From the NCBI GenBank assembly GCA_040752695.1, contig JBFMGO010000106.1, positions 1-21,053 on the forward strand: a DNA stretch of 21,053 nt, given 5' to 3'. Position numbers and translations under genes: made by a program. This DNA is from a bacterium (GTDB lineage: Bacteria; SZUA-182; DTGQ01). Shown here piece by piece: positions 1-18,700 of the stretch. The notes under the pieces were generated by a model. The model was given only the letters and a program-made list of their open reading frames with translations, made no database searches and was not told the DNA's origin. How positions within the stretch are numbered: the first letter of the stretch is position 1; every line of letters starts with the position of its first letter.

Positions 1-315
1 GTCAAAGTCGTATTCATTTTTTTTTGGTATCGTCTTCAGGAGATTGCCTCCGAGAGTAAGGTAAAATCCTTTGGTTGAGATGGACAGGATGAGAGGTTTT
101 TCCTGCTCCTCCTCTTGAGTCACCTGCTCCTGGGCTGAGCGAGCGGAGTCTGCGGGCTGAGAGGGGAGGGAAAGATTGATCACCGAAGTCTGAATAAAAA
201 CAGCCGTCACCAGCAGCAAGGGAATGATATTAAGAAAGATATTCAAAACCGGTGTCAGGTAAAGTTCTACGGTTTTATTATTTTTTCGTTTTTTTAATGT
301 CAGCCGATCCGCCAT
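1..315 (-). CDS. ExbD/TolR family biopolymer transport subunit (AglQ/AglS-like), 3' end outside the window
   Basis: Not in the ORF track; translated by hand from ATG at 315, preceded by an AAGGA RBS: MADRLTLKKRKNNKTVELYLTPVLNIFLNIIPLLLVTAVFIQTSVINLSLPS...PLILSISTKGFYL...EYDFD. Basic N-terminus, one TM helix and an 'INLSLP' segment fit ExbD/TolR; it lies directly downstream of an ExbB-like gene. Confidence 0.9.
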   Translation of the reverse strand, partial: MADRLTLKKRKNNKTVELYLTPVLNIFLNIIPLLLVTAVFIQTSVINLSLPSQPADSARSAQEQVTQEEEQEKPLILSISTKGFYLTLGGNLLKTIPKKNEYDFD

Positions 316-420: not shown

Positions 421-1047
421 TCATTGCTGCTTAAGGAAATTGATCAACTTCAGGGAGAATTGGTCAATATCATCAAGGATCTGGTCAGACATGGAATTTA
501 AAATAGAGTAGCTGATCATGCAGGGAATCGCTACGATCAAGCCAAAGGCAGTGGTATTGAGCGCCATGGCAATCCCTCCGGCCAGCATGGTGGCTTTTTG
601 AGCCGCATCGACATGGCTTACTGCCTGGAATGCCTGAATGAGCCCGTGAATAGTCCCTAAAAGCCCCATCAGTGTGGAAATATTGGCGATCATATTGAGA
701 TATTCCGTTCTTTTGGAAATACGGGGCAACTGTTCCATAGTGGCCTCGTCAATTGCGTTTTGGATTTCATCCGCATTCTGGCCGTGTCTCTCCAGGACAG
801 CCTTGACAATGATCGGAAGCGGGGCTTTTGATTTATCGCACATTTGGATAGCCTTGTCGATTTCCCTGGATTTGATGTGTTGAAATATCCTGGTCATAAA
901 AGCCTTCGACTTGATTCTGAACTGAAATCCAACCTTATAGAAGCGCTCGAAAATAATAGCCAGGCCAAAGACCGAAGCGACCAGGATAGCGTACATGAAA
1001 AAACCGCCCTGGATGAAGAAAAGCTTTATCAGTTGAAAAATGCTCAT
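421..1047 (-). CDS. MotA/TolQ/ExbB proton channel family protein (AglR-like)
   Basis: 208 aa with three TM segments and the signatures GGFFMYAIL...IIFER, ANISTLMGLLGTIHGLIQAF and GIAMALNTTAFGLIVAIP; AGGAG RBS upstream. Confidence 0.95.
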   Translation of the reverse strand: MSIFQLIKLFFIQGGFFMYAILVASVFGLAIIFERFYKVGFQFRIKSKAFMTRIFQHIKSREIDKAIQMCDKSKAPLPIIVKAVLERHGQNADEIQNAIDEATMEQLPRISKRTEYLNMIANISTLMGLLGTIHGLIQAFQAVSHVDAAQKATMLAGGIAMALNTTAFGLIVAIPCMISYSILNSMSDQILDDIDQFSLKLINFLKQQ

Positions 1048-1118: not shown

Positions 1119-1994
1119 CTAGTGCCTATGGCAGGTGATGCAGAAGGTATCCACGTCATACCCTTGCCCCGAACGCCCGCCTGCCGGCTCCTCTCTTCCC
1201 TGTGTCTGGCCGTCCTGCGGTCTTTTTCCCCACGACTGGCTCTCCAGTGGTCGGCTTCTCCACGAGCCCCACCCCTTAGGCCTGGCATTCCAACCTCCCC
1301 CCTTAAGGCGGCTCCCGGCCCCTTGCGGCTGCTTCCCCTGTGAAAGCATCCAGGGTGCATGGCACTTCTGGCAATTGCCCTTACCCTCATTATCCTGAGA
1401 CTGAGACTGATGAGGAGACTGAAAAACCGTCTTTTGGACCTCCTTCCAAAAGATGTGGTAGTAGCGGGAGGGATGGCACCGGAGGCAGCTTTGGTTGAGC
1501 TCTTGAAGCAGCGGCGAAGTTGAGCTGCCTGCTCTGGCGGTGGATGCGCTTTTGGGAATAGCCATTTCAGAATAATGGCAGGAAACACAGCTTCCCTCTT
1601 TTATCTCCGGTTTGACTGCATAAAAAGAAGATTTGAAAAAACAAAAGCTTATTTCTTTGGCAGATGCTGTCATGCTTTTAGCTCCTGTTGTTTCATTGAG
1701 GTCATCTGGCGCCTTTGGCAGAAAGTATTCATCATGTAATTTCATTTCTATCTTAAGGTCAGCGCGGGGAATAACATACATGGTACTTGGTTTGCGGATA
1801 CTCCCCTGGATTTGCATCTCCTGCATGTCGATTCTCTCATGCTCGGCATCGGCCCCGGAGGACCCGGATGAATCAAAAAAGGCAGCCGCACTCCTTTGCG
1901 CACCGAGGAGAAAGAGCATACTAACGAGCAGTATGCGCAACAGGCTGCTAAAAGCCGAAAGGGTACCGGTTATTTTTTGAGTGTTCTGATCCAT
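1119..1994 (-). CDS. Secreted GltF/CglF-like motif protein fused to a tetraheme c-type cytochrome domain
   Basis: Likely start is ATG at 1994 (MDQNTQK, after GGAGGT), giving 291 aa; the track start at 2033 overlaps the upstream gene further. Hydrophobic signal peptide ending near RSAAA. Motif IDMQEMQIQGSIRKPSTMYVIPR. Four CxxCH: CVSCH 1575-1589, CLRCH 1473-1487, CQKCH 1359-1373, CITCH 1128-1142. Confidence 0.8.
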   Translation of the reverse strand: MDQNTQKITGTLSAFSSLLRILLVSMLFLLGAQRSAAAFFDSSGSSGADAEHERIDMQEMQIQGSIRKPSTMYVIPRADLKIEMKLHDEYFLPKAPDDLNETTGAKSMTASAKEISFCFFKSSFYAVKPEIKEGSCVSCHYSEMAIPKSASTARAGSSTSPLLQELNQSCLRCHPSRYYHIFWKEVQKTVFQSPHQSQSQDNEGKGNCQKCHAPWMLSQGKQPQGAGSRLKGGGWNARPKGWGSWRSRPLESQSWGKRPQDGQTQGREEPAGGRSGQGYDVDTFCITCHRH

Positions 1995-2959
1995 TCCCTT
2001 ACCTCCGAAGACCTGGGACCACCCGCCTGGCAATAGTGCTGGTAATTTTTTATGGCCTCTTCAGGATTGAACAGATAGAGGTCATACAGGATGCCGAGAT
2101 TCAAAAAAGCCTCAAGGCAATCGGGTTTGACCTGTAGAGCCTGCTGATACTGTTCCCTGGCCAGGTCGTACTTGCCGCTCGATCGATAGATCGCCCCAAG
2201 ATTAATGTAAGCGGGATAATAATGGCTGTCCTTTTCTATGGCCTGCCGGTAGGATGCAAGAGCCTCCTTGAGTTCTCCCCTTCTCTCGTGAGCGAGGCCT
2301 GTGTTATTATACACTTCAACCAGGTTGGGGTCCATTTTTATGGCCTTTTCATATGAGGAGAGAGCATCCTCATATTGGTTTAGCCCTAAGTAAACATTGC
2401 CCAGATTTAAATACAACTTAGAAGAAGGTTTAATTCGCAGGGCACTTTTGTATTCTCTCACAGCCATATCCGGCTTGCCCACAGCTTCGTAAACAGAGGC
2501 CAGCCGCACCATCGTCTCTCTGGAATCGGGAAGTGCGGCCAGGGTTCTGTGGTACTCGATAATAGCTTTTGGATAAAGATGCTGCAACCGGTACAAATCT
2601 CCAAGCCCCTGGTGAATCTGGGGAATATTCCCTTTTTGACTCAGGGCTTTCAGGTACTCGTCTTTAGCCTGCGTATAGTGCTTGAGCCGGGCATAGGTCA
2701 ATCCCAGGTTATAATGGATATGGGGATCATCAGGATCAATTGCCAAAAGGCCTTTCAATTCGGTGAGGCATTGCTGATAATTGCCGTTCCGGTAGAGCAG
2801 ATTGGCCCGGTAGATCCCTTTCCCGACCGGACTGTGAATTTTGAATGTTTTCGTACATCCGCCCCAAAAAAGGCTATAGACCAGGACGCACATCAAGACC
2901 CGGAAGATCAGGCGGTTATTATTCAGCTTTTTATGGTAAAGAGATAGAGTCTGCATCAT
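1970..2959 (-). CDS. TPR-repeat putative lipoprotein (GltE/AglT-like)
   Basis: 329 aa; hydrophobic leader ending LFWGGC (loose lipobox); tandem TPRs such as YNLGLTY, LNLGNVY, INLGAIY; terminal LNLGILYDLYL...AIKNYQHY...VREWI. Its start overlaps the upstream stop (ATGA at 2956-2959). Confidence 0.85.
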   Translation of the reverse strand: MMQTLSLYHKKLNNNRLIFRVLMCVLVYSLFWGGCTKTFKIHSPVGKGIYRANLLYRNGNYQQCLTELKGLLAIDPDDPHIHYNLGLTYARLKHYTQAKDEYLKALSQKGNIPQIHQGLGDLYRLQHLYPKAIIEYHRTLAALPDSRETMVRLASVYEAVGKPDMAVREYKSALRIKPSSKLYLNLGNVYLGLNQYEDALSSYEKAIKMDPNLVEVYNNTGLAHERRGELKEALASYRQAIEKDSHYYPAYINLGAIYRSSGKYDLAREQYQQALQVKPDCLEAFLNLGILYDLYLFNPEEAIKNYQHYCQAGGPRSSEVREWIRTLKK

Positions 2960-5900
2960 TCCCTCAAAAGAAGCTGGTCAGGAAAATTCAAGTCAGATCG
3001 ATCCCTTGCCAGCGGCCTTTCTTCATTTCGCAGATACCGTGCCGGTCGCAAAACGGCCAGTCTCTGGTATGAATGCCCGATCCAGGGATTATACTCAATT
3101 TTACTGAAAAATGTCTCAATATTTTTTCTGTACATTTCAACAGCCTGATTTTGATAGGGCAGGGCCTTCTCCATGAGAGCCATCCGGTAGCTTTGGGCCT
3201 GTTCTTCATCGAGGACTTCAGGAACGGGAGCCTCTTTGATGAGTGAATATATTTTTTCATACCGTTGACCTGCCTGCCAATAGTCCTTGGTCAGATTCTC
3301 TTTGGATGTCGTGATCCATGAATCCTCGTTGATTTTGTTTTTTTCTGATAATTGTATGTTTTTTTGATAGAACAGCCCCGCTTTTTCCAGAAATTCGATA
3401 ATCTTCTGCTGAAGTTGAATGGTAATGAGCAGGGAGGCAGAGTCACTGCCTTGCGCCTGGTCTTCAGACCGGCTCAGTTCATTTTCCTGGAGTTGTTCAG
3501 CGAATTTATCCATGGCCAACCCCATCTTGAAATAGGCCTGGGTGGTCCATTCGGCGATTTTGAAATCAGCGGCCCTGGTATATTTTTCAAGCACTTTTTT
3601 GAGCAGATCCAGTTTCGCCTGCATACCTTTATCGCTGATTTCCTGCACTCCGACCCTGTCGTAAGCATCAAAGGCCATTTCCGCCATAAGAGTCTGGGCC
3701 CAGGCAGGGTAATAGGGAGTAACGGTGCTGTCGACCGCTTTATACCGCTCGTAGGTGTCCAGAACAACCTGAAAGGCAGCCTCGGCCTGGCTGACCGCGT
3801 TGCTTTTCATAAGTGCATATCCCCGCCTGAAATTGACTTCAAGGGCTAAAGAGGGTTCAGGCCGCAGGTCGGTCTGATAGAGGCTGAATACCCTGATAAC
3901 GTTTGACCAGATCTGCGCCTCTTCGTATAACCTTCCTGCCTTGTAGAGGGCTTTTGATGATTCTGCGAAGTGAGGATAATCGACATACAGCTTTTCGTAA
4001 CTCTGGGCCGCTTCTCGAACCTGCTTGCTTTTTTCCTGCTCAAGAGCGATGTGCAGGAGAGACTGGGGAGCATATTCCGAACCGGGATACTGCTGGATGA
4101 TCCGGCTATAGACCTGGCTGGCCCTCTTGGACAGACTCTGTGTCTGGTAGATCCTGGCTGCTTCAAACAGGGACAAATCGGCAGTCTGCTCGCTGGAAAA
4201 TGCATCTGCCGTGGCCTCGAACTTTTCCGCAGCCTCAAGAGGCTTTCCTTCTCTGAGGAGCAGTTCGGCTTCCTTGTAGCTCGAGAGGGCCATCATTTTG
4301 AAAGCGTTTCTGCGGGTTGATACAATCTCGACATCCTCTTGCTCTTTTTTCTCTTTTATCTTCTGATCACAGTCAGCCACAATTTCAGAGTATACCTTGG
4401 CTGCAAGGTCGAATTTTTCCTGAGTAAAACGGGCCTTGGCCAGCATTTTCAGAGCGGAAGAGCGGATCGCGCTCTCTTGAAAGTGCTGGATGATATACTC
4501 AAAAATACCGATCGCCTCCTGGGGATAGCCCTTCTTTAGATACAATTCTCCCTTCTTATAGAGAACCTCAGGCAGATGCTCATGCCTGGGAAAAGATTCA
4601 AGCAGATAGTCGCAGGCTGCCAGGAATTTTTTCTCCTCAGGTATCCATTCTTCTCCTTCTCCTGATCTTTCTCCTTCTCCCGCTCCTTGAACTTCTGCAC
4701 TATATGCCGTTTCACCTTTTCCTCTATCTTTTCCTCTCTTTTGTGCTTTCGTTTGTGTTTTCGTTTCCTCTTTGTCTTTCCCTTGCCCTTCTGCCGTAAC
4801 TTCTGCTTTATCTCCGGCTCCTGCTTTATCTCCTCTTCCCCTGGCTTCTTTCACCTTATCTCGTTCATTCTGTTCAATCATTTTCTCCAGGCAAAGGATT
4901 TGCTTATAGGCGGCGTCCTCGGAAAACTTGTGGAACTCCTGGTTCTGCACCACCCGCTCGTATTCGGAGAGCGCCTGCCCGTATTGATTCGTTTTATACA
5001 GGCATTCAGCCAGAAAAAAGGTAATGGTATAGACCTGCTCGGCGCTGGGGAAAAGGCTCAGGTTTTTCCGGTAAAACACGATCAGATCCTGGTAATCCTT
5101 TTCGTTCTTCGATTCCAGGAGGTATAAGGTGGTGTTACGGATAGATTCGTCGATGAGAGACGATACCTGCTTTCTGGCTGCTTCATCCTTATTTTCCCGC
5201 CACCACGGTGTGTTCTCGCCGTAATTGGTCACCAGCCGCTCTCTGGCACTATTGGCTGCCCTGGGAAGGTTCAGCTTGAGATAGCACTGCTCGATTCTGG
5301 ACTGAAACACGGGATTTTCAGAAGCAAGCGGAAAGCGTTTGATTACCCATTGATACGCATCGATCGCATCCTCGAATCTTTCCTGGTCGAACAAAAGCCT
5401 GGCCATCTCTTTCAAGACCCGAAAGAGGTAACTCTTCCCCTCAAGCGGGGAGAACGCCTTCCTGGCCTGTTCCACGGAATCATATTCACTGCCCATTTTC
5501 GCCAACTGGTAGGTCATCTCTGCCAGGAGGGGATCGTTTTGGGTACGCACATAATCATCGGCCAGGGAAATGAAAAGGTCACGTGCCTGAAGGTCCTTTT
5601 CCTGCTTGTAAAAGGACCAGGCCAGCTTATAGAGGACATTGTTCCGGTAATGATCGGGGAGTTTTCCGGAAGCTATCGCCCGGTTGTAGTAATCAGCAGC
5701 CTGAGCGAACTTATTCTCGTCAAAAGTGATTTCTCCCAGTCTGACCAGGACCTCAAGTGCCAGTGAACTATGAGGAAATTTCTGGATCAGACGCTGAAAA
5801 AGATCTTTGGCCAAAATGACCGCACCCTGCTCCTGATAGGCATAGGCCAGGGCATAGAGGGTTTTTTCCGTATAATCCCCTTCGGGAAACTGTGACAATA

Positions 5901-8643
5901 TCCTTTCGTAGAGTTTAATAGCCATGTCGTAAGTGGGTTTGGTTTCCAGGATAAAATCAGCCGGATTATCCTTCCATTTCAAGAACTTGAGCCGCTGCTG
6001 GAAATCAAGGGAGGACTTGAGATAAGAACACTCGGCCATTTGAAATAAGATCTTTTCAAGGTACGGACTTTGCGGGTACCTCTCGGCAAAAGATTCATGT
6101 GCCACAATCACTCTTTCCAGGGTATCCAGAGTTTTTGGGTTTTCTGCTGCGGACGGTGAGAAGGTTTCCTTAAATTTTGCAAGCCCAATCTCAAGGTCGG
6201 CCCGCTCCTGGATCTCTGAAAGTCTATTGCTGACCGTGCTTAAACCTTCCTGAACATCATTTTTAAGCTGAGTCAAAACCGCGCCCTTGATTTCCCTGAG
6301 CACTCTTTCCTGATCGAGGATTTTTTTAAAGGCAGCCCGCCTGACCTCTAAAAGCCCTTTTGACTGGTCATCCCCGGAGGACTCCTTTTGCGGCTCGCTC
6401 ATAAGCCCGGATAAGATCTGTATCTTTTTCGGGTACCCAGGCTCAGGAGCCAGAAGAAGATCTTTCATGGATCTGAGGGTTTCTTCGATCTCCAAAAGAG
6501 CATTCCAACAGGACAGGCTGGCTTTTGACTTGAGATAATCTCCTACCTCCCGGTACAAAAAAGAGGCCGGCGCAGACAGGGGAACCGAAGCGGAAGCGTA
6601 AACAGAGGAAGCGTAAACACTTGAAGGGTGATCAGGCAAAGGGTAAGCATCCAGAGAGCAATCGTTCGAAGGGTGAGCATCCAAAGAAAAAAGCAGCAGA
6701 TTTTCCATCTGCCCCTGATCCTTCCGGAACTGTTCGATAGCCGAAAGCGCTTTCCGGCATCTGTCTGTGGATTCCTGATACAGGGCATACGCATCTTGAT
6801 ATTTTCCCATATGCAGCCGGTTATCGGCCAGGCTGAACCGGGCATCGGAGAGAAACCGGTTTTCCAGGCATTTTTGGCTCACTTCATCCACGATCTCTTC
6901 GACTTTCTCTTCATTATGCAGCTTGAGAAAAACCAGCCCCTTTCCGGTCAGGCCGGACAGATAAAAGGGGCTTGTTTCGGGAATAGCTTCACATTCCTCC
7001 ATGGCTTTCTTATACTCCCCTTTTTGGTACCATATCTTTCCCAAAAGAAGATGAGCGGATTGAATAAGATAGCCGGCATCCGCATCAGAGCCAAGAATAA
7101 GCTGCATATTGCCCATGACCGCCGTAATCCCCGGATAGGCGGCAGAATCCATAACAGATCCGGCAGAAGCCGTAAGATGGGCATCTTTTACCATAGATCG
7201 GCCAGCAAAAGGGACCGCAGTGAGATGGGCAGGGGAGGGGAGACGGATTATTTTCCCCAGTGCGTCGGCCGCAGCGTCATTTTGCTGAACTGCCAGGCAG
7301 CACAGCGCAAGCAGGTACTGAGCAGCTCCATAATAAGGTGACTGCTGAGAGATTACCTGCAGAAGACTCGCGCTTTGGGAAAATTGCTTTTCCTGATAAT
7401 ACGATCGAGCGGCCATATAACGGGCTGGATCGAGAATTTCGGCATCTGTTCGAGATCCAAATTGCTGGAAATCGGCTGCCGTAAGATTATATTGCCCTGA
7501 CAGGTAATGGGCCATTTCAGTGCGAAGCATGGCAGCATAGCGGTAATCGCTTCCCGGATACTCCCTGCGTAACTGCTGATAAGCCCGAATCGCTTCGGCA
7601 TACATCTTGAGATAAAAGAAGCATTCCGCCCTGAGGAACAGTCCCTCAGTCAAAAGAGCCCTGAAAACACCAGGGCCTGAAAGAGCCCCACCGGGAGGAG
7701 CCCCGGTTTTGGCCCCGGTCACAATTCCAGGCGCAGTTCCGGCCGCCCCGCCGGACTGACCCGTATCAGTCTCTCTGAGGCTGCCCGTACCAGTCTCCCT
7801 CACGCTGGAAGATTCTTTCAAAACAGCATTCAGGCTTAACAGGCAAACAAGATATTCCTCATTGAGAAAATGCCCCCTGGCCGTTTCCACATCCATCTGG
7901 AGCTTTTCCACGCTCCCGGCTGGCGGGCTATCCAGAGTCACGGCTTCATTGCCGTCATCGAAAACAACGACCATGGTCAAGGCCCGATCGATCGGCCAGG
8001 AAAAACGAAAGGAACATTTCTTGACTATCCGCGTATCGGAAACTGGCTTTTTATGCAGGCAGCGGGAATCGGAAAGAAAGGAGCACCCTTTCAGGTGCGC
8101 GGCTTTTCCTGTCATGGTTTTTTGTTCCCTGTCACCACCACCACCATCACCACCATCATCATCACCGCTGCTGCCTGATTCGCCTGATGGTATCTCCTGA
8201 AATACAAAGGTGAGGCGAAGCTCATGCTCTCCGTCCGGTATATCCGATATGACAAACTCTTTAACCGTATTTCGATAAAAAATTCCGGAATCCTCAAAAG
8301 AGAAATTATAGTGAGTTAATTCTTTGTCAAGATGTGTAACCACATCAGTCAGAATGAGATCACAGGAAGCACGATTGCGAAGGGAGAGACTGATTCCATC
8401 CTCCGTCTTTTGTGGAAGGAAATCCGCCATGTCCTGGGCCAGGTGACCTGCTGTCAGGCCAATCGTTTTTTTAAGGCTGTCGGTCTGATCGCAAAGCCTG
8501 CTTTTTTGGGTTTCCTGCAGGTCGAATTCGGGAAGGTTCCATTCCCTGGCCTCTGTCAGTATTGTCAGGCTTGGAGAAAAGAGGCAAAGGATGAGGACCA
8601 GACTTACTTTATTGAAGATAATCTTGGCGGTCCTGTTTTTCAT
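2956..8643 (-). CDS. Giant secreted TPR protein (about 1900 aa), GltD/AgmU-like C-half with a possible GltC-like N-half
   Basis: Uninterrupted ORF; ATG at 8643 chosen, with the track's TTG at 8667 as an alternative. Signal peptide ...LILCLFSPSLTILTEA. Many BamD/YbgF-type TPRs (...YPGSDY, ...FPEGDY, ...FPHSSL). The C-terminus YTRAADFKIAEWTTQAYFKMG...APVPEVLDEEQAQSY...PYQNQAVEMYRKN...W...S...L...PARY is recalled as typical of GltD-like proteins. Confidence 0.85.
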   Translation of the reverse strand: MKNRTAKIIFNKVSLVLILCLFSPSLTILTEAREWNLPEFDLQETQKSRLCDQTDSLKKTIGLTAGHLAQDMADFLPQKTEDGISLSLRNRASCDLILTDVVTHLDKELTHYNFSFEDSGIFYRNTVKEFVISDIPDGEHELRLTFVFQEIPSGESGSSGDDDGGDGGGGDREQKTMTGKAAHLKGCSFLSDSRCLHKKPVSDTRIVKKCSFRFSWPIDRALTMVVVFDDGNEAVTLDSPPAGSVEKLQMDVETARGHFLNEEYLVCLLSLNAVLKESSSVRETGTGSLRETDTGQSGGAAGTAPGIVTGAKTGAPPGGALSGPGVFRALLTEGLFLRAECFFYLKMYAEAIRAYQQLRREYPGSDYRYAAMLRTEMAHYLSGQYNLTAADFQQFGSRTDAEILDPARYMAARSYYQEKQFSQSASLLQVISQQSPYYGAAQYLLALCCLAVQQNDAAADALGKIIRLPSPAHLTAVPFAGRSMVKDAHLTASAGSVMDSAAYPGITAVMGNMQLILGSDADAGYLIQSAHLLLGKIWYQKGEYKKAMEECEAIPETSPFYLSGLTGKGLVFLKLHNEEKVEEIVDEVSQKCLENRFLSDARFSLADNRLHMGKYQDAYALYQESTDRCRKALSAIEQFRKDQGQMENLLLFSLDAHPSNDCSLDAYPLPDHPSSVYASSVYASASVPLSAPASFLYREVGDYLKSKASLSCWNALLEIEETLRSMKDLLLAPEPGYPKKIQILSGLMSEPQKESSGDDQSKGLLEVRRAAFKKILDQERVLREIKGAVLTQLKNDVQEGLSTVSNRLSEIQERADLEIGLAKFKETFSPSAAENPKTLDTLERVIVAHESFAERYPQSPYLEKILFQMAECSYLKSSLDFQQRLKFLKWKDNPADFILETKPTYDMAIKLYERILSQFPEGDYTEKTLYALAYAYQEQGAVILAKDLFQRLIQKFPHSSLALEVLVRLGEITFDENKFAQAADYYNRAIASGKLPDHYRNNVLYKLAWSFYKQEKDLQARDLFISLADDYVRTQNDPLLAEMTYQLAKMGSEYDSVEQARKAFSPLEGKSYLFRVLKEMARLLFDQERFEDAIDAYQWVIKRFPLASENPVFQSRIEQCYLKLNLPRAANSARERLVTNYGENTPWWRENKDEAARKQVSSLIDESIRNTTLYLLESKNEKDYQDLIVFYRKNLSLFPSAEQVYTITFFLAECLYKTNQYGQALSEYERVVQNQEFHKFSEDAAYKQILCLEKMIEQNERDKVKEARGRGDKAGAGDKAEVTAEGQGKDKEETKTQTKAQKRGKDRGKGETAYSAEVQGAGEGERSGEGEEWIPEEKKFLAACDYLLESFPRHEHLPEVLYKKGELYLKKGYPQEAIGIFEYIIQHFQESAIRSSALKMLAKARFTQEKFDLAAKVYSEIVADCDQKIKEKKEQEDVEIVSTRRNAFKMMALSSYKEAELLLREGKPLEAAEKFEATADAFSSEQTADLSLFEAARIYQTQSLSKRASQVYSRIIQQYPGSEYAPQSLLHIALEQEKSKQVREAAQSYEKLYVDYPHFAESSKALYKAGRLYEEAQIWSNVIRVFSLYQTDLRPEPSLALEVNFRRGYALMKSNAVSQAEAAFQVVLDTYERYKAVDSTVTPYYPAWAQTLMAEMAFDAYDRVGVQEISDKGMQAKLDLLKKVLEKYTRAADFKIAEWTTQAYFKMGLAMDKFAEQLQENELSRSEDQAQGSDSASLLITIQLQQKIIEFLEKAGLFYQKNIQLSEKNKINEDSWITTSKENLTKDYWQAGQRYEKIYSLIKEAPVPEVLDEEQAQSYRMALMEKALPYQNQAVEMYRKNIETFFSKIEYNPWIGHSYQRLAVLRPARYLRNEERPLARDRSDLNFPDQLLLRE

Positions 8644-9096
8644 TGATAACTTAATATACCCTGGCAATTTTTACGACGAAACTTGAAAACACCACAAAAT
8701 GTTGATTCCATCTTCCATGGGGGGAACAGCGCCTGATTCCTGGAGATAACTTCCACCTTGGGCTGCTTTCTTTAAAATGCCCGGATGAGAAACTCCTCAT
8801 GTCCATTATAAGATCTCTCTCATCACTTTTCTCATCGGCTGGCAAAGAAGCTGCTATCGCCTCACCCTGGATGTTCCCATGCCTCAACTGAAAAATAGTC
8901 TTATTATTTCAATATGGTAACATATCCAGCCGATAATAGCAATATGACAGGCAGGGTAATGATTCATATATGAGAGATGGCACGCTGTTAAAAGGTGTTG
9001 ATTATAAGATTTTTTCCCTTCATACAATCTGTCTTTCCCGTTTCACAATCTCTGGTAGGTAGTAATCTTACGGCAGATTCTCCGAAAGACTAGCAG

Positions 9097-9218: not shown

Positions 9219-9818
9219 ATGAACATTGCCGAGAAACCATTGGCTATTATTCTTTCTCGTAACTGGTGGGTGTTACTTCTGCGTGGCATTATCGCGATCA
9301 TGTTCGGCGTCTTGGCCTGGCTGAAACCCGGAATCTCGCTCATGGCGTTGGTATTGCTCTTCGGCGCATACACCCTGGCGGACGGCATCCTTGGGGTATG
9401 GCTCGCCATTGCGGGGCGCAAGGAAGACGAGCACTGGTGGATACTGCTCCTCTGGGGATTCATAAGCATTATCGTTGGAATCCTGACGTTCCTAACGCCC
9501 AGTGTCACCGCGTTGGCACTTCTGATCTATATCGCAATCTGGGCGATTGCTACGGGCGTTCTTGAGATCGTGGCCGCGATCCGCCTGCGAAGGGAGATAA
9601 GGGGTGAGTGGCTGCTTATTCTCGTCGGCATTGCATCGGTCATGTTCGGCGCCCTTCTTATGGCGAAGCCCGGCGCGGGCGCTCTCGCCCTGCTTTGGCT
9701 GATTGCGACATATGCCGTCATCTTCGGCGTCCTTCTCATTATTCTGGCGTTTAAGGCGCGCACATTCGGTAACCAAGTTGCACTCCATAAGGACCGAACA
9801 ATAAATGAATTCCATTAG
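9219..9818 (+). CDS. hdeD: HdeD/DUF308 family membrane protein
   Basis: 199 aa, about six TM helices, family signature NWWVLLLRGIIAIMFGVLA..P...L.LLFGAY.LADG; AAGGAG RBS. The symbol is family-level only. Confidence 0.9.
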   Translation: MNIAEKPLAIILSRNWWVLLLRGIIAIMFGVLAWLKPGISLMALVLLFGAYTLADGILGVWLAIAGRKEDEHWWILLLWGFISIIVGILTFLTPSVTALALLIYIAIWAIATGVLEIVAAIRLRREIRGEWLLILVGIASVMFGALLMAKPGAGALALLWLIATYAVIFGVLLIILAFKARTFGNQVALHKDRTINEFH

Positions 9819-9843
9819 CATTTAACCGAAAGGAGAAAAAGAT

Positions 9844-10638
9844 ATGAATAAGATGTTGGTAGCTTTTTTCGACACGGAGCAAGGAGCCTACGAAGGACTC
9901 CGCGCGCTCAAGGATCTCCATAATGAGGGAGATATCACGCTGTATGCGACGGCAGTTATTACGATGGATTCCTCAGGGGCCGTCGATGTGAAGCAGAAGG
10001 CCGACGAGAGGCCTGTCGGCATTGCCGTCGGCATGTTAACCGGCGGCTTGGCCGGTTTGCTGGCAGGACCGGTCGGGGGTGTTGTTGGGGCCTCGGCAGG
10101 ATCCCTGGCGGGCTTGATTTTCGATCTGCACAGATCGGGGGTCGATACCGACTTGCTGGATGATGTATCGGGGTTCCTGCTCCCGGGCAAGGCAGCCGTG
10201 GTCGCGGAGGTGCAGGAAACCTGGAAGACTCCGGTGGATATGAGACTTGGGGAACTGGGTGGACGCATCTTTCGGCGACCACGTTCTGAGGTCGTCGAGG
10301 ATCAACTGGTCCGGGAATCTGCCGCGCTTAGTGCCGAAATGGAGCAGATCAAGGGAGAGTTGAGGCATGCGAGTGCGGAGACCAAAGCCAAACTTCAAAA
10401 GGAACTCGAAGGCGTCAAGACGAAGATGGAGGCAGCGGAAACCCGTGCCAAGACGAGAGCGGAGCATGTGCAAAACGAGCTGGATGCAAAGGTCACTGCC
10501 TTGCAGGACCAGATGAAGCAGGCTGGCGATCGGCAAAAGGCGAAAATCCAGAAACACATTGAAGAGGTCAAGGCCGATTATGCAGTGCGTAGCGCCAAGC
10601 TTGAGAAGGCCCGAAAGCTCATCAAGGAGGCATTGTAA
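9844..10638 (+). CDS. DUF1269-like membrane protein with C-terminal coiled coil
   Basis: 264 aa; N-terminal MLVAFFDTEQGAYEGLRALKDLH.EGDITL, glycine-zipper GMLTGGLAGLLAGPVGGVVGASAGSLAG, LLPGKAAVVAEV, then a K/E/A-rich helical tail; AAGGAG RBS. Confidence 0.85.
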   Translation: MNKMLVAFFDTEQGAYEGLRALKDLHNEGDITLYATAVITMDSSGAVDVKQKADERPVGIAVGMLTGGLAGLLAGPVGGVVGASAGSLAGLIFDLHRSGVDTDLLDDVSGFLLPGKAAVVAEVQETWKTPVDMRLGELGGRIFRRPRSEVVEDQLVRESAALSAEMEQIKGELRHASAETKAKLQKELEGVKTKMEAAETRAKTRAEHVQNELDAKVTALQDQMKQAGDRQKAKIQKHIEEVKADYAVRSAKLEKARKLIKEAL

Positions 10639-11198: not shown

Positions 11199-11218
11199 AT
11201 ATATCGAGGTGGTTGACA

Positions 11219-11797
11219 ATGAAAAAAATATTTCTTTTCTCAATAATGCTTTCCCTCGCCTGGATTTTGGCTGCCGCAGGATGCAGCCGCTATCAGGTGA
11301 GGATTCCTGCACTTCCTCTTCGTGAAGCTGACCTTTACCCGCAGGAGCAGAATAAAGACGGCCTCATCGTGGCTGCGGATGATTATTTCGATGTAAATAA
11401 GTCGCATCAGGCATTTGGCGTTAATTTCGCGAAAGAAAATATTCTGGTCATCGAGGTTATTGTTTCAAATAGAAGCAATGATGCTTATGCCATTCAGAGC
11501 AACGAAGTGCTGTTACTCAGGGATGATCAGGTCATCTATCCTCTTCTGGCCCTGGAGGTTTCATCTGACGAGCAGTTAACCGAATATCTGAATATGGTCG
11601 AACTCAAAAATGTGGTTGTTAATCCGGGAGAATCGGCCCACGGCTTCCTCTATTTCCGGTTGCCGAAAGAACCACTGGAAGACGAGCGGACCCGGTTCTC
11701 GTCCATGTGGCCTCATGCCTACAGACTGCGTGTGGGAGCGACACAGATAGAACAAAATTCCAGGCTGGTATACACGATCAGCTTAAGAAATATGTAA
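11219..11797 (+). CDS. Hypothetical lipoprotein, possibly a DUF4352-like beta-sandwich
   Basis: ATG at 11219 after GAGGTGG; signal MKKIFLFSIMLSLAWILAAAGC with lipobox AAGC; segments IEVIVSNRS and VVNPGESAHGFLYF suggest an Ig-like fold. Confidence 0.85.
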   Translation: MKKIFLFSIMLSLAWILAAAGCSRYQVRIPALPLREADLYPQEQNKDGLIVAADDYFDVNKSHQAFGVNFAKENILVIEVIVSNRSNDAYAIQSNEVLLLRDDQVIYPLLALEVSSDEQLTEYLNMVELKNVVVNPGESAHGFLYFRLPKEPLEDERTRFSSMWPHAYRLRVGATQIEQNSRLVYTISLRNM

Positions 11798-12770: not shown

Positions 12771-15700
12771 TTACACCTTTTCCAGTACAGGAAGCAAAAA
12801 ATAAGCGCCTTTTGCCAGTTTTTCCTTGAGAAACCCGGTGTATCCCATCCAGTAAACCGGATCCTCTTCCCGGTAAAACCGCACATACAGTTCTCTGATG
12901 CGATACATAAAAGGGCCTGTCCCAAGCCCCTTGAGGCAATTCGGATTGACCTTGCCGATCACGGTCTGCGGCTTGAACCGGCAAAGAAGAATATCCCCCT
13001 CCCGGCTGATTTCCACCTGGACACCGGCGTAAAGGCCCGTACTTTCCTGCCAGGCATCGAATCTCAAGCCAAATTCCCGCGAGATGAGCTCCCTGCCTGA
13101 AAAGGAAAGAACAACCGGCATCATCTGCTGGCTCTGGCTCTGCGGTGACTGCCCTGTCCGCTTGCCGGTATGCCCTGAACCTTCGGCACCCGCCCCGGAC
13201 CACAGGGAGCGGATCACCCGGTGCCTGGCCCGTGTAATGCCCACATAGCCGATATTTTTTTCCTCCCGGCCTTTCGGAGAGTGCTCCCAAGAGGAGGGAT
13301 TGGCAGACCCGCCGAAGGGGAGAAGGTAGACCACATCGAATTCCAGCCCCTTGACCTTATGCACGGTCGAAAAAATTATCTCGACACCTTTTCCTCCATC
13401 TTTTTTTTCTTCTTCTTCCTCCTCCCTTTCTTTTCCTTCCCTCCCCGTGTTTTCCCCGGCAAAGCTCAAAGAACTGGAATTCACTCCATGCTTCCTCTTT
13501 CCGAGCGCCTCTTCGATAAGATAATCCTCAAGCTCGATTCCATCGATCCGGCCACTGTCTCCGATATGGCCGCTATCTCCTGCTCTGGCCGGATAGCCAG
13601 CCGCATAGCCGCCTGAATAGCTGCCATCTCTTCCCATTTCTAAAGGTTGTTCACGTTCTCCCCTCTTGAGAAAAAGGGGGTCGGGGAGGATTTCATTTTC
13701 CTCCTCCGGCCAGGTCCGGATATCGGCAAACCCCTTTCCACGGTCATCGAGATAGGTCAACATAGCCATAGGCTCCCAATCCCGGTACGATCCGATATAA
13801 CCGGGAATCATACCAAGGCTCCGACAGCGGTCAAAAGCTGCTTTGATGGCTGTCTTGTCAACAATCCGCTGAGCCTGACGTTCTTTCCTGGCAAGGTCCC
13901 GGATGGCCTCAAAAATGTCCCACCTGCGCCAGAGGGGGAAATTCTCGTTCAGTGGCAGACAGCGGCCAAAGGGGGAAAGTTTCCGGCGAAGATGATAAAA
14001 GGCCGCTTCCACCTCCTGGTTGCTGCGGCCAAGTATGGCTATGGACAGGTTTTGTGATGCTGCCTGGCGGCAGGTTGTTATGCAGGCAATATCTTCGGCA
14101 ATAGGCTCGTAGATGGCCCTGTGAATTTCCTGCTCCGATGCCGCGGGGTCCACTTTTCTGGTTATTCCTCCCGGGAAGCCAGACTCTTGCCACTCCTGCG
14201 CCCTGGGCACGGCATGCACTCCCTGCGCCTCTTGCACCCCCTGCCCCTCCAATGTTCCCTGCTCTCCCTTATGCTTATCCTCCTCCCGGCCGGGGCGGTG
14301 AACCCGATGGGTGAATGCATAATTTTCCTTCACATACTCATCAAAGAACCGGCACAGCTCACTGCAACTGCGATAGTTTTTGGTTAATTCCCTTTCCGTG
14401 AGGCCGATTGATTGCTCTTTCAGGAAGGCGCTCAAAAGATCAAAGCTTGTCTGCTTTTCCTTGGGATACTGGTAATGGAAGATGTCCTGCAGGGGATCTC
14501 CCACCAGAAAAACAGTGAGATTTTCCTTATGGGATTTTAAGATAATCTTTTTAACAAATTCCAGCCTCTCGGCCAAAACATCCTGAAATTCGTCGATCAG
14601 GAGGTAGTGATAATGACGGCTTGAAAAAAGCTCAGCAGCTCTTTCCATGCACTTTTGGTGGAAAAGCTCGGTCTGATTTTCCTCTCTTTTTCCCCCCCTC
14701 CCCTTTTGGTCCTGCACCTCTTCCCTGATCCTGACCATTTCATCCTGCCCCAGTACTTTCCGGGCAAATCCATGAAAAGTGAAGATGTTCAGCCTCCTCC
14801 AGTCGTTTAAAAGGTCAAATTGCGGCTGATGGGCCCGAATCCGCTTTTGCAGCTCCACCACTGCCTTTTTTGTATAAGACAGAAGCAGTATGTTTTCTGC
14901 AGGAACGGCTTTTCGAATCAGAAGGTCCAGCGCAGCATAGATCAAGGTCCTGGTTTTCCCTGCACCGGGACCAGCCCTCACCATCAGTGATGCTCCATTG
15001 CCGAAAGCTTCCACGATTTTCTTTTGTTCATCATCGAGCTCGCGGTCTTTCGCCTCACGGTAATCCTTCTCCTTGCTTTCGGAAAAATAGCTCTTTATAC
15101 GAAGGCGCAACCGGTCATGCTCAGGTTTTTGCAAAAGCGCCAGAGTGTGCTCCGAAAACCCGGGAGAACGGGCGGAATGAAGGCAGGTAAAATAATCGGC
15201 AATTAACTGGTCAGCCAACTCCCGGTCACCCTGAGTCAGAACTGAAAAGAAAATCCTGGTGAGAAACTCTTTCACCCTGACCAACTGGTCAATTTCCCTG
15301 ATCCTGTCAAGGCACGCCTTGTTCCACTGATCCAGAGGTCTTACGGTCAGGCGGTAGCCAATCTCCTCCTCCTGCTCGAAGTAATGGATGTATCCAAAAA
15401 CCTTAAGCAGCGAAAGCGCCCGCTTCATCTCTTCCAGAGAGTGGTCCTTGTGGAACTGCTCATAGATACTCAGGATACCGAAGGATTCGGGCCTCAACCC
15501 GCTGCCGGCTCTTCGGCGGCTGCCAGGCGAATCCGTGCTCAGGCAGCCATAAGGCTGCCTTCTTTCGATATCAGCCGGGCTGCACTGGTGCAGGTACTCG
15601 TAAATCTCTTCAGCCAGGCATATATCCTGCCCGAAGTCATGCTTTGGATTCACCTCCAGAATGCGAAAAGCGAGGCTTTTTCTCTCTACCGGATTTTCCG

Positions 15701-18700
15701 TCCTGTACATTATAATCTTATGCCTTTGCCAGAAGCGGAAAAGATGCCCGATCCTTCGGGATTTTTTTACCAGGTCGTGCAGCATCTTTCGCCTGTGCTT
15801 TTCCAGCCACTCCTCAAGACGCGGATAACTTCCGGAAAGATGGCCAAGGTCAAGCTCGTAAAAAGGAGTATCTATCACGTAACCCGCCATAGCGCCGTCC
15901 ATATTATGTTCATGATCCACCCCCTGAGCCACGCCATCATGTTCATGATCCGCGCCGTGAGTCACGCCGTGATCTACTCCATAATCAACGCCGTGATTTA
16001 TACCGCGATCCACGCCGTAATCTATTCGATGATCTACGCCGCGGTCTACGCCGTGATCCATCCCATGGTCAATCCCACGGTAGCTGTCGTGCGGTGTTCG
16101 AAAGAAACCCTCGCGGCGAAGCTCTTCCAGCTCTGCCGACTCCTGACCCCAGATCCGGTTTTTCTCCTCTTCCGAAAAGAACACTTTTCCGTCCGGCCGG
16201 TACTCCCGGATCAGTGCGGTAATCCTGTCCACCAGATCTGGCCAGGAAATGGATTGCTCCCTGGCCAGGTACTTTTGCTGCACTTTTTCGAACAGAATAC
16301 GGCCAATGTGCAGGGGGAAAAAGAGCGGGAAAAAACATGTCCGGTCCCCATGCTGGCCCCAAGACAGAGCTTTCGATGGATCAGGATCATAAGCGCTGCC
16401 CTTTTCCGATCGGGCAGGCAGAACAAAGGATGTAGGTTGAATGCCCCGGTGGGAAATAGTGATGAGCCCCTTTCGCTGAAACTGAAGGAGGTCAAGATAG
16501 CAGGCTTTTTCGTCTCCATCGTACTGTCCGACCAGTTCCTGGAGAGAGAACACCGCCCGGCATTCCCTGCACAATTCTCTTTGCCATGCCCGATCGAGAG
16601 GGAAAGCGGAAGGATCGGCAGTGAGGTCTATTTCGAGGCCAAATAAGCGGTACTCGCCCCAGGCAAAGATTCCCGCCTCATATTGAGAGAGCCAGTAGAG
16701 GGCACTTCGAACCACAGCCTCTTTCCTCCTTTTCTGGGGAGCTGGAGAAAATTTGGATATACCCGACAGGCGGTCATCGAACCGGAAATCAAGACCATGA
16801 AACTGCATGGAAAAGGTGGCATCCTGAAGCGATCCGCCTTTGAAAACCTGCTCCATCAGTTCAGAGCGGATGTTTAGCACAGCCTCCCTGGTCACATCCG
16901 CTCCGCAGTCGGTTTCCTGTTCCAATTCGATAAGTCCACCGCCGCCTCCTTCACCCACTTCTTCACCCCCTTCAACAGGCTCCTGCGGTTCAAGGAGGAC
17001 ATAAGCGCGGGCAGGTGGATGGAAGCGCTCCCTCCTGCGGGCTGCCCTGCCGATTTCCTGAAGATAATCCTCCAGGGTTTGCGGCCTCTGATAGTGAATA
17101 ACCAGGGATATGTTCGGTATGTCCATACCCATGCCAAACGCCCTGGTAGCCACCAGGACCTGAATCTCTCCGCTGGCGAAGCGGCGGTAGATCATCTCCC
17201 GCTCCTCCACCGGAATTCCGGCATGAAAGCAATCGAAGTGCAGGGGCTCACCGCCCCGCATATCTTTGATCAGTGCCTCGTTGAGCATTTCGGCCAACTC
17301 TTCGGTGCCGTGCTGCGACTGGTAAAAGATAATGGCCCGAAAGCGCTCTGCGTCCAGATTCTCGCCAATGATTTTCCTGATGGCCTCGATTTTTGCCGCC
17401 TGTATGTCGAGCGGCATGCCTGCCTGATCGCCGCTTATCGCCTGTATGCCGAGCGGCATGCCTGGGTGATCGCCGCTTATCGCCTGTATGCCGAGCGCTG
17501 TACCTGCCTGATCGTCTTGCGGCATACTGGCCTGCGCGTCTTGTGGCACATCTGCCTGCGAGCTTTGTGGCGTTATCGCTCCCCCGGTTTTTTGTCTTTC
17601 GTCCTTTTCGCTCCGGCCCTGTGTCCTTCCGATGAGAAAGATGTGTTTTTCGATCCCAGGCCGCAAGGGGACCCGGTTTTCCGGATTCACATCCTTGATT
17701 CCTGTTTCCTTGATTCCTGGTCCTCCGGTTTCTGTTCCCTCGGTTCCCGTTCCCTCGATTACTGGTCCCTTGACTCCTGGTCCCTTGATTCCCGGTCCTC
17801 CGGTTCCGTTTTCTTTTGATTCTGTCGACCCGGTGTGCCGGACTTTATCAGCCAAAAGGCGCATATTGGTTTCCGTAACCGTAGCAGAAAAAAGAAATCC
17901 CTGCACCCGGCCGTAAATCTCGTGGAGTAACAGGTCCTGGTAGCAGCACAGGTAATCGGGCCGGAAATGGTATCCCCAGTCGGCTACGCAGTGGACTTCG
18001 TCAAAGACGACAAATTCCAGCCCTTCATCCAGGGCTGCCCTGCGCTGTAAAACCTTTCGAAAGGCGGGAGAGCGAAACCGCTCCGGAGTCACGTAAATGA
18101 TTCTCAAAGTACCATCCTGGATCTGATGGTAATACAATTGTACCTCTTCCCGGTCCAGATCCTGATGAAATCCGGCTACAAAATCGAACATGCCAAGAGA
18201 GCAGAGCTTGAAAGACTGTTCCTGAATCAGGGCCTTGAGCGGGGAGATAATCACTACCAGCTTGCCCGAATAGGCGGTTTTGATAATGGCCGGAAGCTGA
18301 AAGATCAGCGACTTTCCTCCTCCTGTGGGAAGAGTGATCAGCCGGTGACGCTGGTCCTTCGAGTCGAAGAACTGCTCCACGTTCTTCTTCTGCGTCCTTT
18401 CATAATGCTCTGAAGAAAATTCTCCCTCCCGGAAAAAAACCGAGCGAAGCAATAGGTCGATGTCGCTTTCTTTCTCAGGGCTATCCTTTTCTTCCCAAAA
18501 CTTCGGGTTAAAGAGCTGATTGACTTTTTCCCGCAAATCCGCGTCACATTCCGCATCAGGCGGCAGCGGCCAGTACCGGGTCTCGATGTCGGGAATCCGG
18601 TAATCAAAAAACAGGACCTGCCCGACACCTTCAAATAAACGCAGGTAGAAGGCGTGAAATTTCCGGAAGACAAGCTCCAGGGCATGGATGTCTCTGTCCT

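Follow-up and report, generated by a model that had tools for sequence, protein, structure and literature searches.

What would a domain with four putative hemes be doing in a subunit of an Agl-Glt-like envelope motor? The question is raised by a gene at 1119..1994 (minus strand) of a 21,053-nt stretch of DNA, hereafter the window, which makes up contig C106 in full; the genome (G000) measures 6.0 Mb and is 96.6% complete. It encodes a 291-aa protein in which a GltF-like adaptor is fused to a four-CxxCH domain. The Agl-Glt core complex of non-gliding bacteria comprises aglR, aglQ, aglS, gltC, gltD, gltE, gltG, and one extra gene (PMC3169522, PMC3858216). Luciano et al. (2011) describe its function as unknown and consider it unlikely to drive motility alone (PMC3169522), and Wartel et al. 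(2013) propose that it is a basal machine for transport (PMC3858216). Its job in non-gliders has been unsolved since 2011 (PMC3169522), and heme inside a core subunit would tie redox chemistry to the machine physically.

The reading frame runs from an ATG at 1994, with GGAGG just 5′ of it, to a stop at 1119, has no internal stop, and overlaps with its start the 3′ end of the TPR lipoprotein gene. Both halves lie in a single frame, as a preliminary description of this DNA had it, and the same is true of full-length relatives; the motif quoted there for 1764-1832 is exact (23 residues, 55-77). The signal peptide that it named is probable: in the export-type N-terminus, a hydrophobic stretch (residues 18-32) is followed by an Ala-rich site and an AlphaFold2 model predicts a helix at residues 11-35. 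A probable Sec signal peptide would span residues 1-38 (1881..1994, minus strand), its cleavage site being a prediction. The region is poorly conserved (dN/dS about 0.5), and the hydrophobic N-terminus, predicted to be a signal peptide, may otherwise be a retained anchor.

Residues 53-92 (1719..1838, minus strand; core motif 1764-1832), encoded directly after the gltE-like TPR lipoprotein gene, form a GltF/CglF-like segment recognized by profile-profile comparison. A profile of ten fusion motifs matched a CglF-family profile, built from CglF-model matches outside the phylum (25 extracted, 21 aligned, and four near-copies dropped), with an hhalign probability of 87% and E 3.8e-6 over 30 columns. 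With the CglF-family HMM, the fusion ORF ranked second among the 51,405 six-frame ORFs of G000 (E 0.008), behind the heme-free F gene of a second system in the same genome, and in the reverse search a fusion-only HMM scored 15 of the 25 CglF cores, each weakly, above all other G000 ORFs. The fusion-motif HMM gave no score to the heme-free F gene of that second system. Judged by these profiles, the link is remote yet reciprocal, and the fusion motif is GltF-related. It also appears strongly constrained, with a dN/dS of about 0.09.

The resemblance covers positions 24-55 of the 77 in the CglF-family HMM. The fusion protein is Pro-rich where the CglF C-terminal helix would lie, and the helix is cut short; in all 25 CglF-model matches the protein stops no more than 14 residues past the matched region and has no CxxCH. 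The curated CglF model NF033764 (cut-off 90 bits) had no match on the query protein and gave weak ones on its relatives (15.7 bits for the G002 ortholog; 11.6 bits, E 0.22, for P0009), reaching E 1.9e-4 on P0017, an 87-aa heme-free protein found as a phmmer match of the query (E 6e-4) among 1.84 billion proteins. Neither Pfam nor any solved structure matched the N-terminal segment, and a search aimed at shorter homologs yielded alignments of just 30-46 residues. The GltF/CglF-like N-terminus claimed earlier therefore holds for a syntenic strand motif, and not for the full family signature, since the score lies far below the cut-off and the helix is truncated.

When 401 genomes were searched with the fusion motif, 31 matches lay outside the phylum, and for 24 of these the loci were inspected: 22 are small exported-type, heme-free genes (∼90 aa) beside Glt/Agl genes, with AglR directly downstream in 17 and GltG in 4, and CxxCH occurs in none of the 24. 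One outside match comes from G225, where genuine CglF, CglB, and GltJ are also present. GltF-like genes are thus found in many stand-alone operons, in apparent contrast to the restriction of gltF to Myxococcales and Bdellovibrionales stated in the 2011 paper (PMC3169522). In the predicted M. xanthus model of Attia et al. (2025), GltF contributes a strand that pairs with the C-terminal domain of GltG, and its helix occupies a GltC crevice (PMC11761067); we infer that the fusion motif may correspond to the modelled strand. A complex prediction for the F motif and the GltG C-terminal domain scored 0.01, a value that gives no verdict and is evidence neither way.

The four CxxCH motifs start at residues 136, 170, 208, and 285, as first described (1575..1589, 1473..1487, 1359..1373, and 1128..1142, all on the minus strand), and none of 20,000 shuffled versions of the mature protein contained four such motifs. 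Their conservation in syntenic homologs, which had been proposed as a check, is high: in an alignment of 15 full-length sequences (17 before two near-duplicates were dropped), motifs 1 and 2 are intact in 15/15, motif 3 in 14/15, and motif 4 in 13/15, so that motif 3 or 4 is lost in three sequences. Motif 1 is followed by an invariant Tyr, with Met at +4 in 10/15, and motif 2 by His180, the only semi-conserved free His (9/15). A variable low-complexity linker precedes motif 4, whose His is kept in all 15 sequences, even where the second Cys is lost. Two short relatives (P0012 and P0016), possibly fragments, have no CxxCH at all. Rough dN/dS values, from six close sequences with dS near saturation, are about 0.20 for the region of motifs 1-3, 0.13 for that of motif 4, and 0.37-0.48 for the linkers, compared with 0.20 for GltE and 0.10 for AglR, indicating that the heme domain is under purifying selection as strong as that on core subunits.

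The domain passed Pfam PF09699 (22.6 bits; cut-off 20.6), and its sequence neighbours in the atlas and the PDB are generic multiheme cytochromes. No close free-standing copy was found in 20 genomes of the phylum, where the six strong matches to the domain are the six fusion genes, i.e. it occurs there only in fused form. Heme maturation genes, another check proposed earlier, are present in G000 as Res/Ccs components (ResB and two CcsA-family genes, all over cut-off), and CcmE was not found in that genome. By analogy with its family, the fusion protein would be an exported one carrying covalent hemes. AlphaFold2 models are poor, both for the full protein (pLDDT 49) and for the heme domain of the G005 ortholog (pLDDT 47), and with the latter low-confidence model Foldseek returned no match and VIA a best Z of only 3.4.

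Histidines are scarce in this domain. The query has three outside the motifs, of which one is semi-conserved, and its ratio of 0.75 non-motif His per CxxCH is tied second lowest among 50 G000 proteins with at least three motifs; the most His-poor multiheme candidate of the genome is a gene at G000:C82:1245-2279, with five CxxCH and only one other His in their span. A bis-His wire requires at least one conserved distal His per heme, and here one semi-conserved His serves four motifs, so the electron-transfer link put forward in the preliminary description fits poorly if taken as a plain wire. Other ligand candidates are Met144 (10/15), a Cys at His180 +2 (9/15, absent from the query), and the conserved Tyr. 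Among c-type cytochromes, a scarcity of His is associated with a sixth position that is open or filled by another residue, as is typical of sensing or catalytic hemes, or with ligands supplied by a partner. Because the domain holds about one usable His, some of its hemes may be open, or ligated by Met, Cys, Tyr, or a partner.

The operon around the gene had been called Agl-Glt-like, and matches were obtained for AglR, two ExbD, GltG-like and GltE-like proteins, and GltC/GltD-like parts. The fusion gene lies, as originally placed, between the TPR lipoprotein and ExbB/ExbD genes, all on the minus strand. Upstream is the 329-aa GltE-like lipoprotein (1970..2959), which occupies the same position in relatives and matches NF033758 at E 2e-23, below cut-off, this being one of many TPR models matched. 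Downstream are an AglR-like proton channel subunit of the ExbB/TolQ family (421..1047; PF01618 E 2.5e-30; channel Thr motifs) and the first ExbD-family subunit (1..315), cut by the contig end. In G000 the operon is split over contigs C106 and C40, the latter carrying the rest of the first ExbD, the second ExbD, and a GltG-like TonB protein. At the channel position one ExbD has Asn and the other Asp, in the heme-type and the second system alike; in the operon of the window the Asn is in the first ExbD. The GltG-like protein matches the AgmX/PglI C-terminal model NF033768 with 83 bits (cut-off 40) and NF033760 at E 7e-23. The order giant TPR, GltE-like, heme-bearing F, AglR, ExbD, ExbD, GltG-like recurs in G001, G002, G003, G007, and loci L025 and L028, with one opposite-strand gene inserted in L025.

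In the giant TPR protein (1903 aa; 2956..8667, minus strand), three parts are probably fused: a small beta-rich domain, a stretch resembling GltC (about residues 340-680), and one resembling GltD (about 780-1790). Large TPR proteins encoded in heme-free operons align with its C-terminal part (E 1e-26 to 1e-57), and no GltD family model had a match on it. The N-terminal 800 aa match NF033756 weakly (E 3e-3 in G000, 2.7e-10 in G003), and a GltC-like profile placed its best domain in that N-terminal region for six of the seven giant proteins, TPR cross-matching limiting the certainty of both results. No separate GltC gene is present in the heme-type operon; a system without GltC was considered and dropped, since the giant protein seems to hold a GltC-like part. 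GltC and GltD are thus probably fused in it, and as far as sequence comparison goes the locus looks like a complete stand-alone Agl-Glt core complex, of which the gene studied here is very probably the heme-bearing F subunit.

The small N-terminal domain carries a lineage-specific Cys/His loop (C195, C203, H205, and C218; 8014..8085, minus strand), a candidate heme-ligand donor. The four residues are invariant in all seven heme-type systems and absent from the five small proteins of heme-free operons, in which the loop stretch aligns with a short hairpin; the relationship of the loop domain to these proteins is faint (hhalign probability 1.6%, E 0.03) and was missed by HMM. Among the 401 genomes, a search with the loop-domain profile turned up nothing convincing beyond the six, and the atlas matches of the domain all scored under 0.9. 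Because the heme-type operons form one clade, co-occurrence of heme domain and loop counts as one event. The loop possibly supplies ligands to the F hemes; its cysteines could also be plain disulfides, which would account for part of the pattern.

Around the operon, a 194-aa lipoprotein-like gene with a weak DUF4352 match lies upstream and divergent (window 11213-11797, plus strand; also in G001 and G002). In G001 and G002 the operon is preceded by a gene (L008:6735-7340) for an exported-type protein of ∼200 aa, rich in Pro and Thr and unmatched in Pfam; many paralogs of it occur in G000, where tblastn gave 30 pieces. Genes for a DUF308 membrane protein and a DUF1269 protein (window 9219-10638, plus strand) form an apparently unrelated insertion upstream of the operon, and the far end of the window (12771-21053, minus strand) is taken up by an ORF that runs off the contig, is at least 2,694 aa long, and combines DEAD/RecQ-like and UvrD-like helicase regions.

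The fusion was detected in 6/20 genomes of the phylum, namely G000, four of the five others of its family, and the single genome of a second family (families f1 and f3), and it was not found in 381 genomes outside the phylum, with genome incompleteness limiting claims of absence. Adding protein and contig searches brings the total to ∼15 distinct full-length sequences, and the evidence base for the fusion is of that size, from one origin and uncultured hosts. A 27-row AglR tree places the seven heme-type operons in one clade (100/99) amid heme-free ones; because all seven group together, the tree points to a single gain of the heme domain. Heme-free operons of the same type are common, so the hemes appear dispensable for the motor. 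Paired-CXXCH cytochromes occur in all 20 phylum genomes, suggesting that the fusion is unneeded for a cytochrome-rich way of life; 14 of the 20 have no fusion match, including G004, G006, and G008 (93-97% complete, with 39-51 paired-CXXCH matches each). An obligatory role in nanowire export was considered and rejected, as heme-rich genomes lack the system.

In the heme-free operons, the small protein, GltC-like TPR, and GltD-like TPR are often separate genes. Downstream of several of those at L140, L145, L146, L148, L149, and L151 come genes for a small protein and for an EpsL-like barrel; at L140 a polysaccharide export protein (NCBIfam) comes next, and similar genes occur at L145, L149, and L151. 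A polysaccharide role for the heme-free operon type is a lead.

The preliminary description had also raised a link to motility, and this was not supported by the gene content, which is that of a stand-alone core. CglB was not found in G000, G001, or G005 (positive control G225, 570 bits), nor was CglC, in a search without a positive control. The GltJ model matched only via a shared C-terminal domain. No Glt-type barrel was found in the heme-type operon or in G001, and a barrel-model match in G005 is the start of a protein with an OmpA-like tail. No FHA match was obtained on four GltG-like proteins of the heme-type system, two of which have no cytoplasmic domain. This search for gliding parts covered the barrels GltA/B/H, CglB, CglC, and GltJ. 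G001 (96% complete) has the heme-type system only, with no Glt-type barrel and no separate GltC, and G000, G002, and G007 have in addition a second, heme-free system with a barrel and a GltC-like gene. That all core parts are homologous to Agl-Glt would suit a redox-gated gliding motor, but with CglB, an own GltJ, a Glt barrel, and an FHA domain not found for the heme-type system, and with motility by the core alone judged improbable in the 2011 paper (PMC3169522), such a motor is very unlikely. Gliding by the heme-type operon in any form is unlikely, and the second system is a better candidate for any surface role. In G000 it occupies G000:C90:1-5680 (L015) and continues on G000:C57 (L138); further copies are at L034, L035, and L036. 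It comprises AglR, two ExbD, F, GltG, a Glt-type barrel, a GltC-like protein, and a large TPR protein; in G000 lipoproteins follow, one with a weak CglD-model match, and the system stands back to back with cobalt/nickel ECF transporter-like genes (by eye).

We tentatively favour a reading in which the hemes are a redox or ligand switch on the coupling point of the motor, and regard it as possible rather than probable. An AglR pentamer with two unlike ExbD subunits would spend the proton gradient to work GltG, and this TonB-like protein would pull against the periplasmic TPR scaffold. If, in keeping with the M. xanthus model, the F motif binds as a strand to the C-terminal domain of GltG, the three or four hemes would thereby sit where force passes from GltG to the scaffold, with their ligands partly supplied by partners, possibly by the Cys/His loop of the scaffold. 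Reduction or ligand binding might then change how F bridges GltG and scaffold, and the periplasmic redox state would gate an envelope transport or assembly job. The redox sensing or gating proposed in the preliminary description would find its place here.

Alternatively, the hemes could serve the cargo rather than the motor: the motor would move, place, or service redox cargo, such as periplasmic or surface cytochromes or an outer-membrane conduit, and the heme domain would recognize that cargo or hand electrons to it. G000 has 61 frames with at least two CxxCH motifs, in two genera the operon is closely followed, with no change of strand, by a multiheme gene paired with one for a cytochrome b (b6/ExtP-like; L011:12918-15193 in G003 and L137:4107-5740 in G005), and G002 has an 18-heme protein and a probable barrel upstream, all of which would suit this reading. 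However, redox neighbours vary and, over the extent fetched, are absent beside the operon in G000, G001, G007, L025, and L028, a standard wire would need more histidines, and most of the cytochrome-rich genomes of the phylum (14/20) have no fusion match; we therefore hold it unlikely. Whatever the reading, no conserved neighbour of the operon shows what the motor moves.

A structural or merely tolerated appendage, acquired once in a heme-rich lineage and with no redox role, in which the hemes stabilize a small domain standing in for the shortened C-terminal helix, would account for the single origin, the loss of a motif in 3/15 sequences, the short helix, the lack of an invariant distal ligand, and the fact that most operons of the type function without hemes. 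It is harder to reconcile with purifying selection matching that on core subunits and with retention across families f1 and f3, and four hemes would make a costly spacer; it strikes us as doubtful. Scarce distal His and the lack of a confident fold match would also be expected if the motifs bound zinc or iron, or formed disulfides, instead of carrying heme, but the motif 4 His kept even where its Cys is lost, the PF09699 match, the multiheme sequence neighbours, the export-type N-terminus, and the presence of Res/Ccs render this highly improbable.

Beyond the favoured switch at the coupling point, a 5:2 proton motor with a heme switch can be imagined, in which the scaffold loop ligates the F hemes, so that their redox state blocks or releases the transmission of force between GltG and the outer envelope; in a variant of this same reading, which is a long shot in either form, the pull of the motor swaps heme ligands and shifts their potential. 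If true, this would be a mechanical-redox coupling undescribed for Ton, Tol, Mot, or Agl motors in the literature searched, and the fusion would be a clue that the orphan core complex acts on redox substrates. Neighbouring heme genes merely suggest a redox link, unlike a heme domain within a subunit, and a small soluble protein with a spectroscopic handle makes ligation and partner binding testable without culturing.

How, then, does the locus compare with known systems? The preliminary description knew of no described case, and we likewise found no GltF-cytochrome fusion in the literature searched, which left subscription journals mostly outside; the word 'cytochrome' is absent from the main text of PMC3169522, and the accessible portion of PMC12204202 mentions neither GltG nor cytochrome. 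Its candidate for a new system thus stands as an undescribed fusion, and is better placed as a lineage-specific variant of a known operon type than as a new machine class. With paired-CXXCH, c7, and NrfB-like cytochromes (PF09699, PF14522), the heme domain shares CxxCH spacing and matches in Pfam, atlas, and PDB sequences, but the CxxCHxxH pattern is missing, the four motifs share roughly one conserved free His, and the similarity is generic only.

Closest in organization are the heme-free operons with the order TPR-TPR-F-ExbB-ExbD-ExbD-TonB, which share their gene order and the closest F sequences with the heme-type operons, whose clade nests among them in the AglR tree; a similar gene order is given for Fibrobacter succinogenes FSU_2397-2403 in the available part of PMC6851124. 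The F proteins of the heme-free loci inspected, however, have no CxxCH (0/24), and several of these operons continue into EpsL-like barrel and polysaccharide export genes that heme-type operons lack. Like GltF/CglF of M. xanthus (MXAN_4868; NF033764), the protein is of exported type, is encoded after gltE, and has the hydrophobic-Gly-Lys-Pro-Tyr strand motif; unlike it, it falls below the 90-bit cut-off by far, has a short helix, is followed by aglR rather than gltG, and bears ∼200 extra residues with predicted hemes. The whole resembles the Agl-Glt core complex in having, in one operon, an ExbB-family channel, two ExbD, a TonB-like GltG, and a TPR scaffold with a lipoprotein, with no gliding add-ons, and differs from it in that the GltC/GltD-like parts are seemingly fused behind a Cys/His loop domain and the small F gene bears a three- or four-CxxCH domain.
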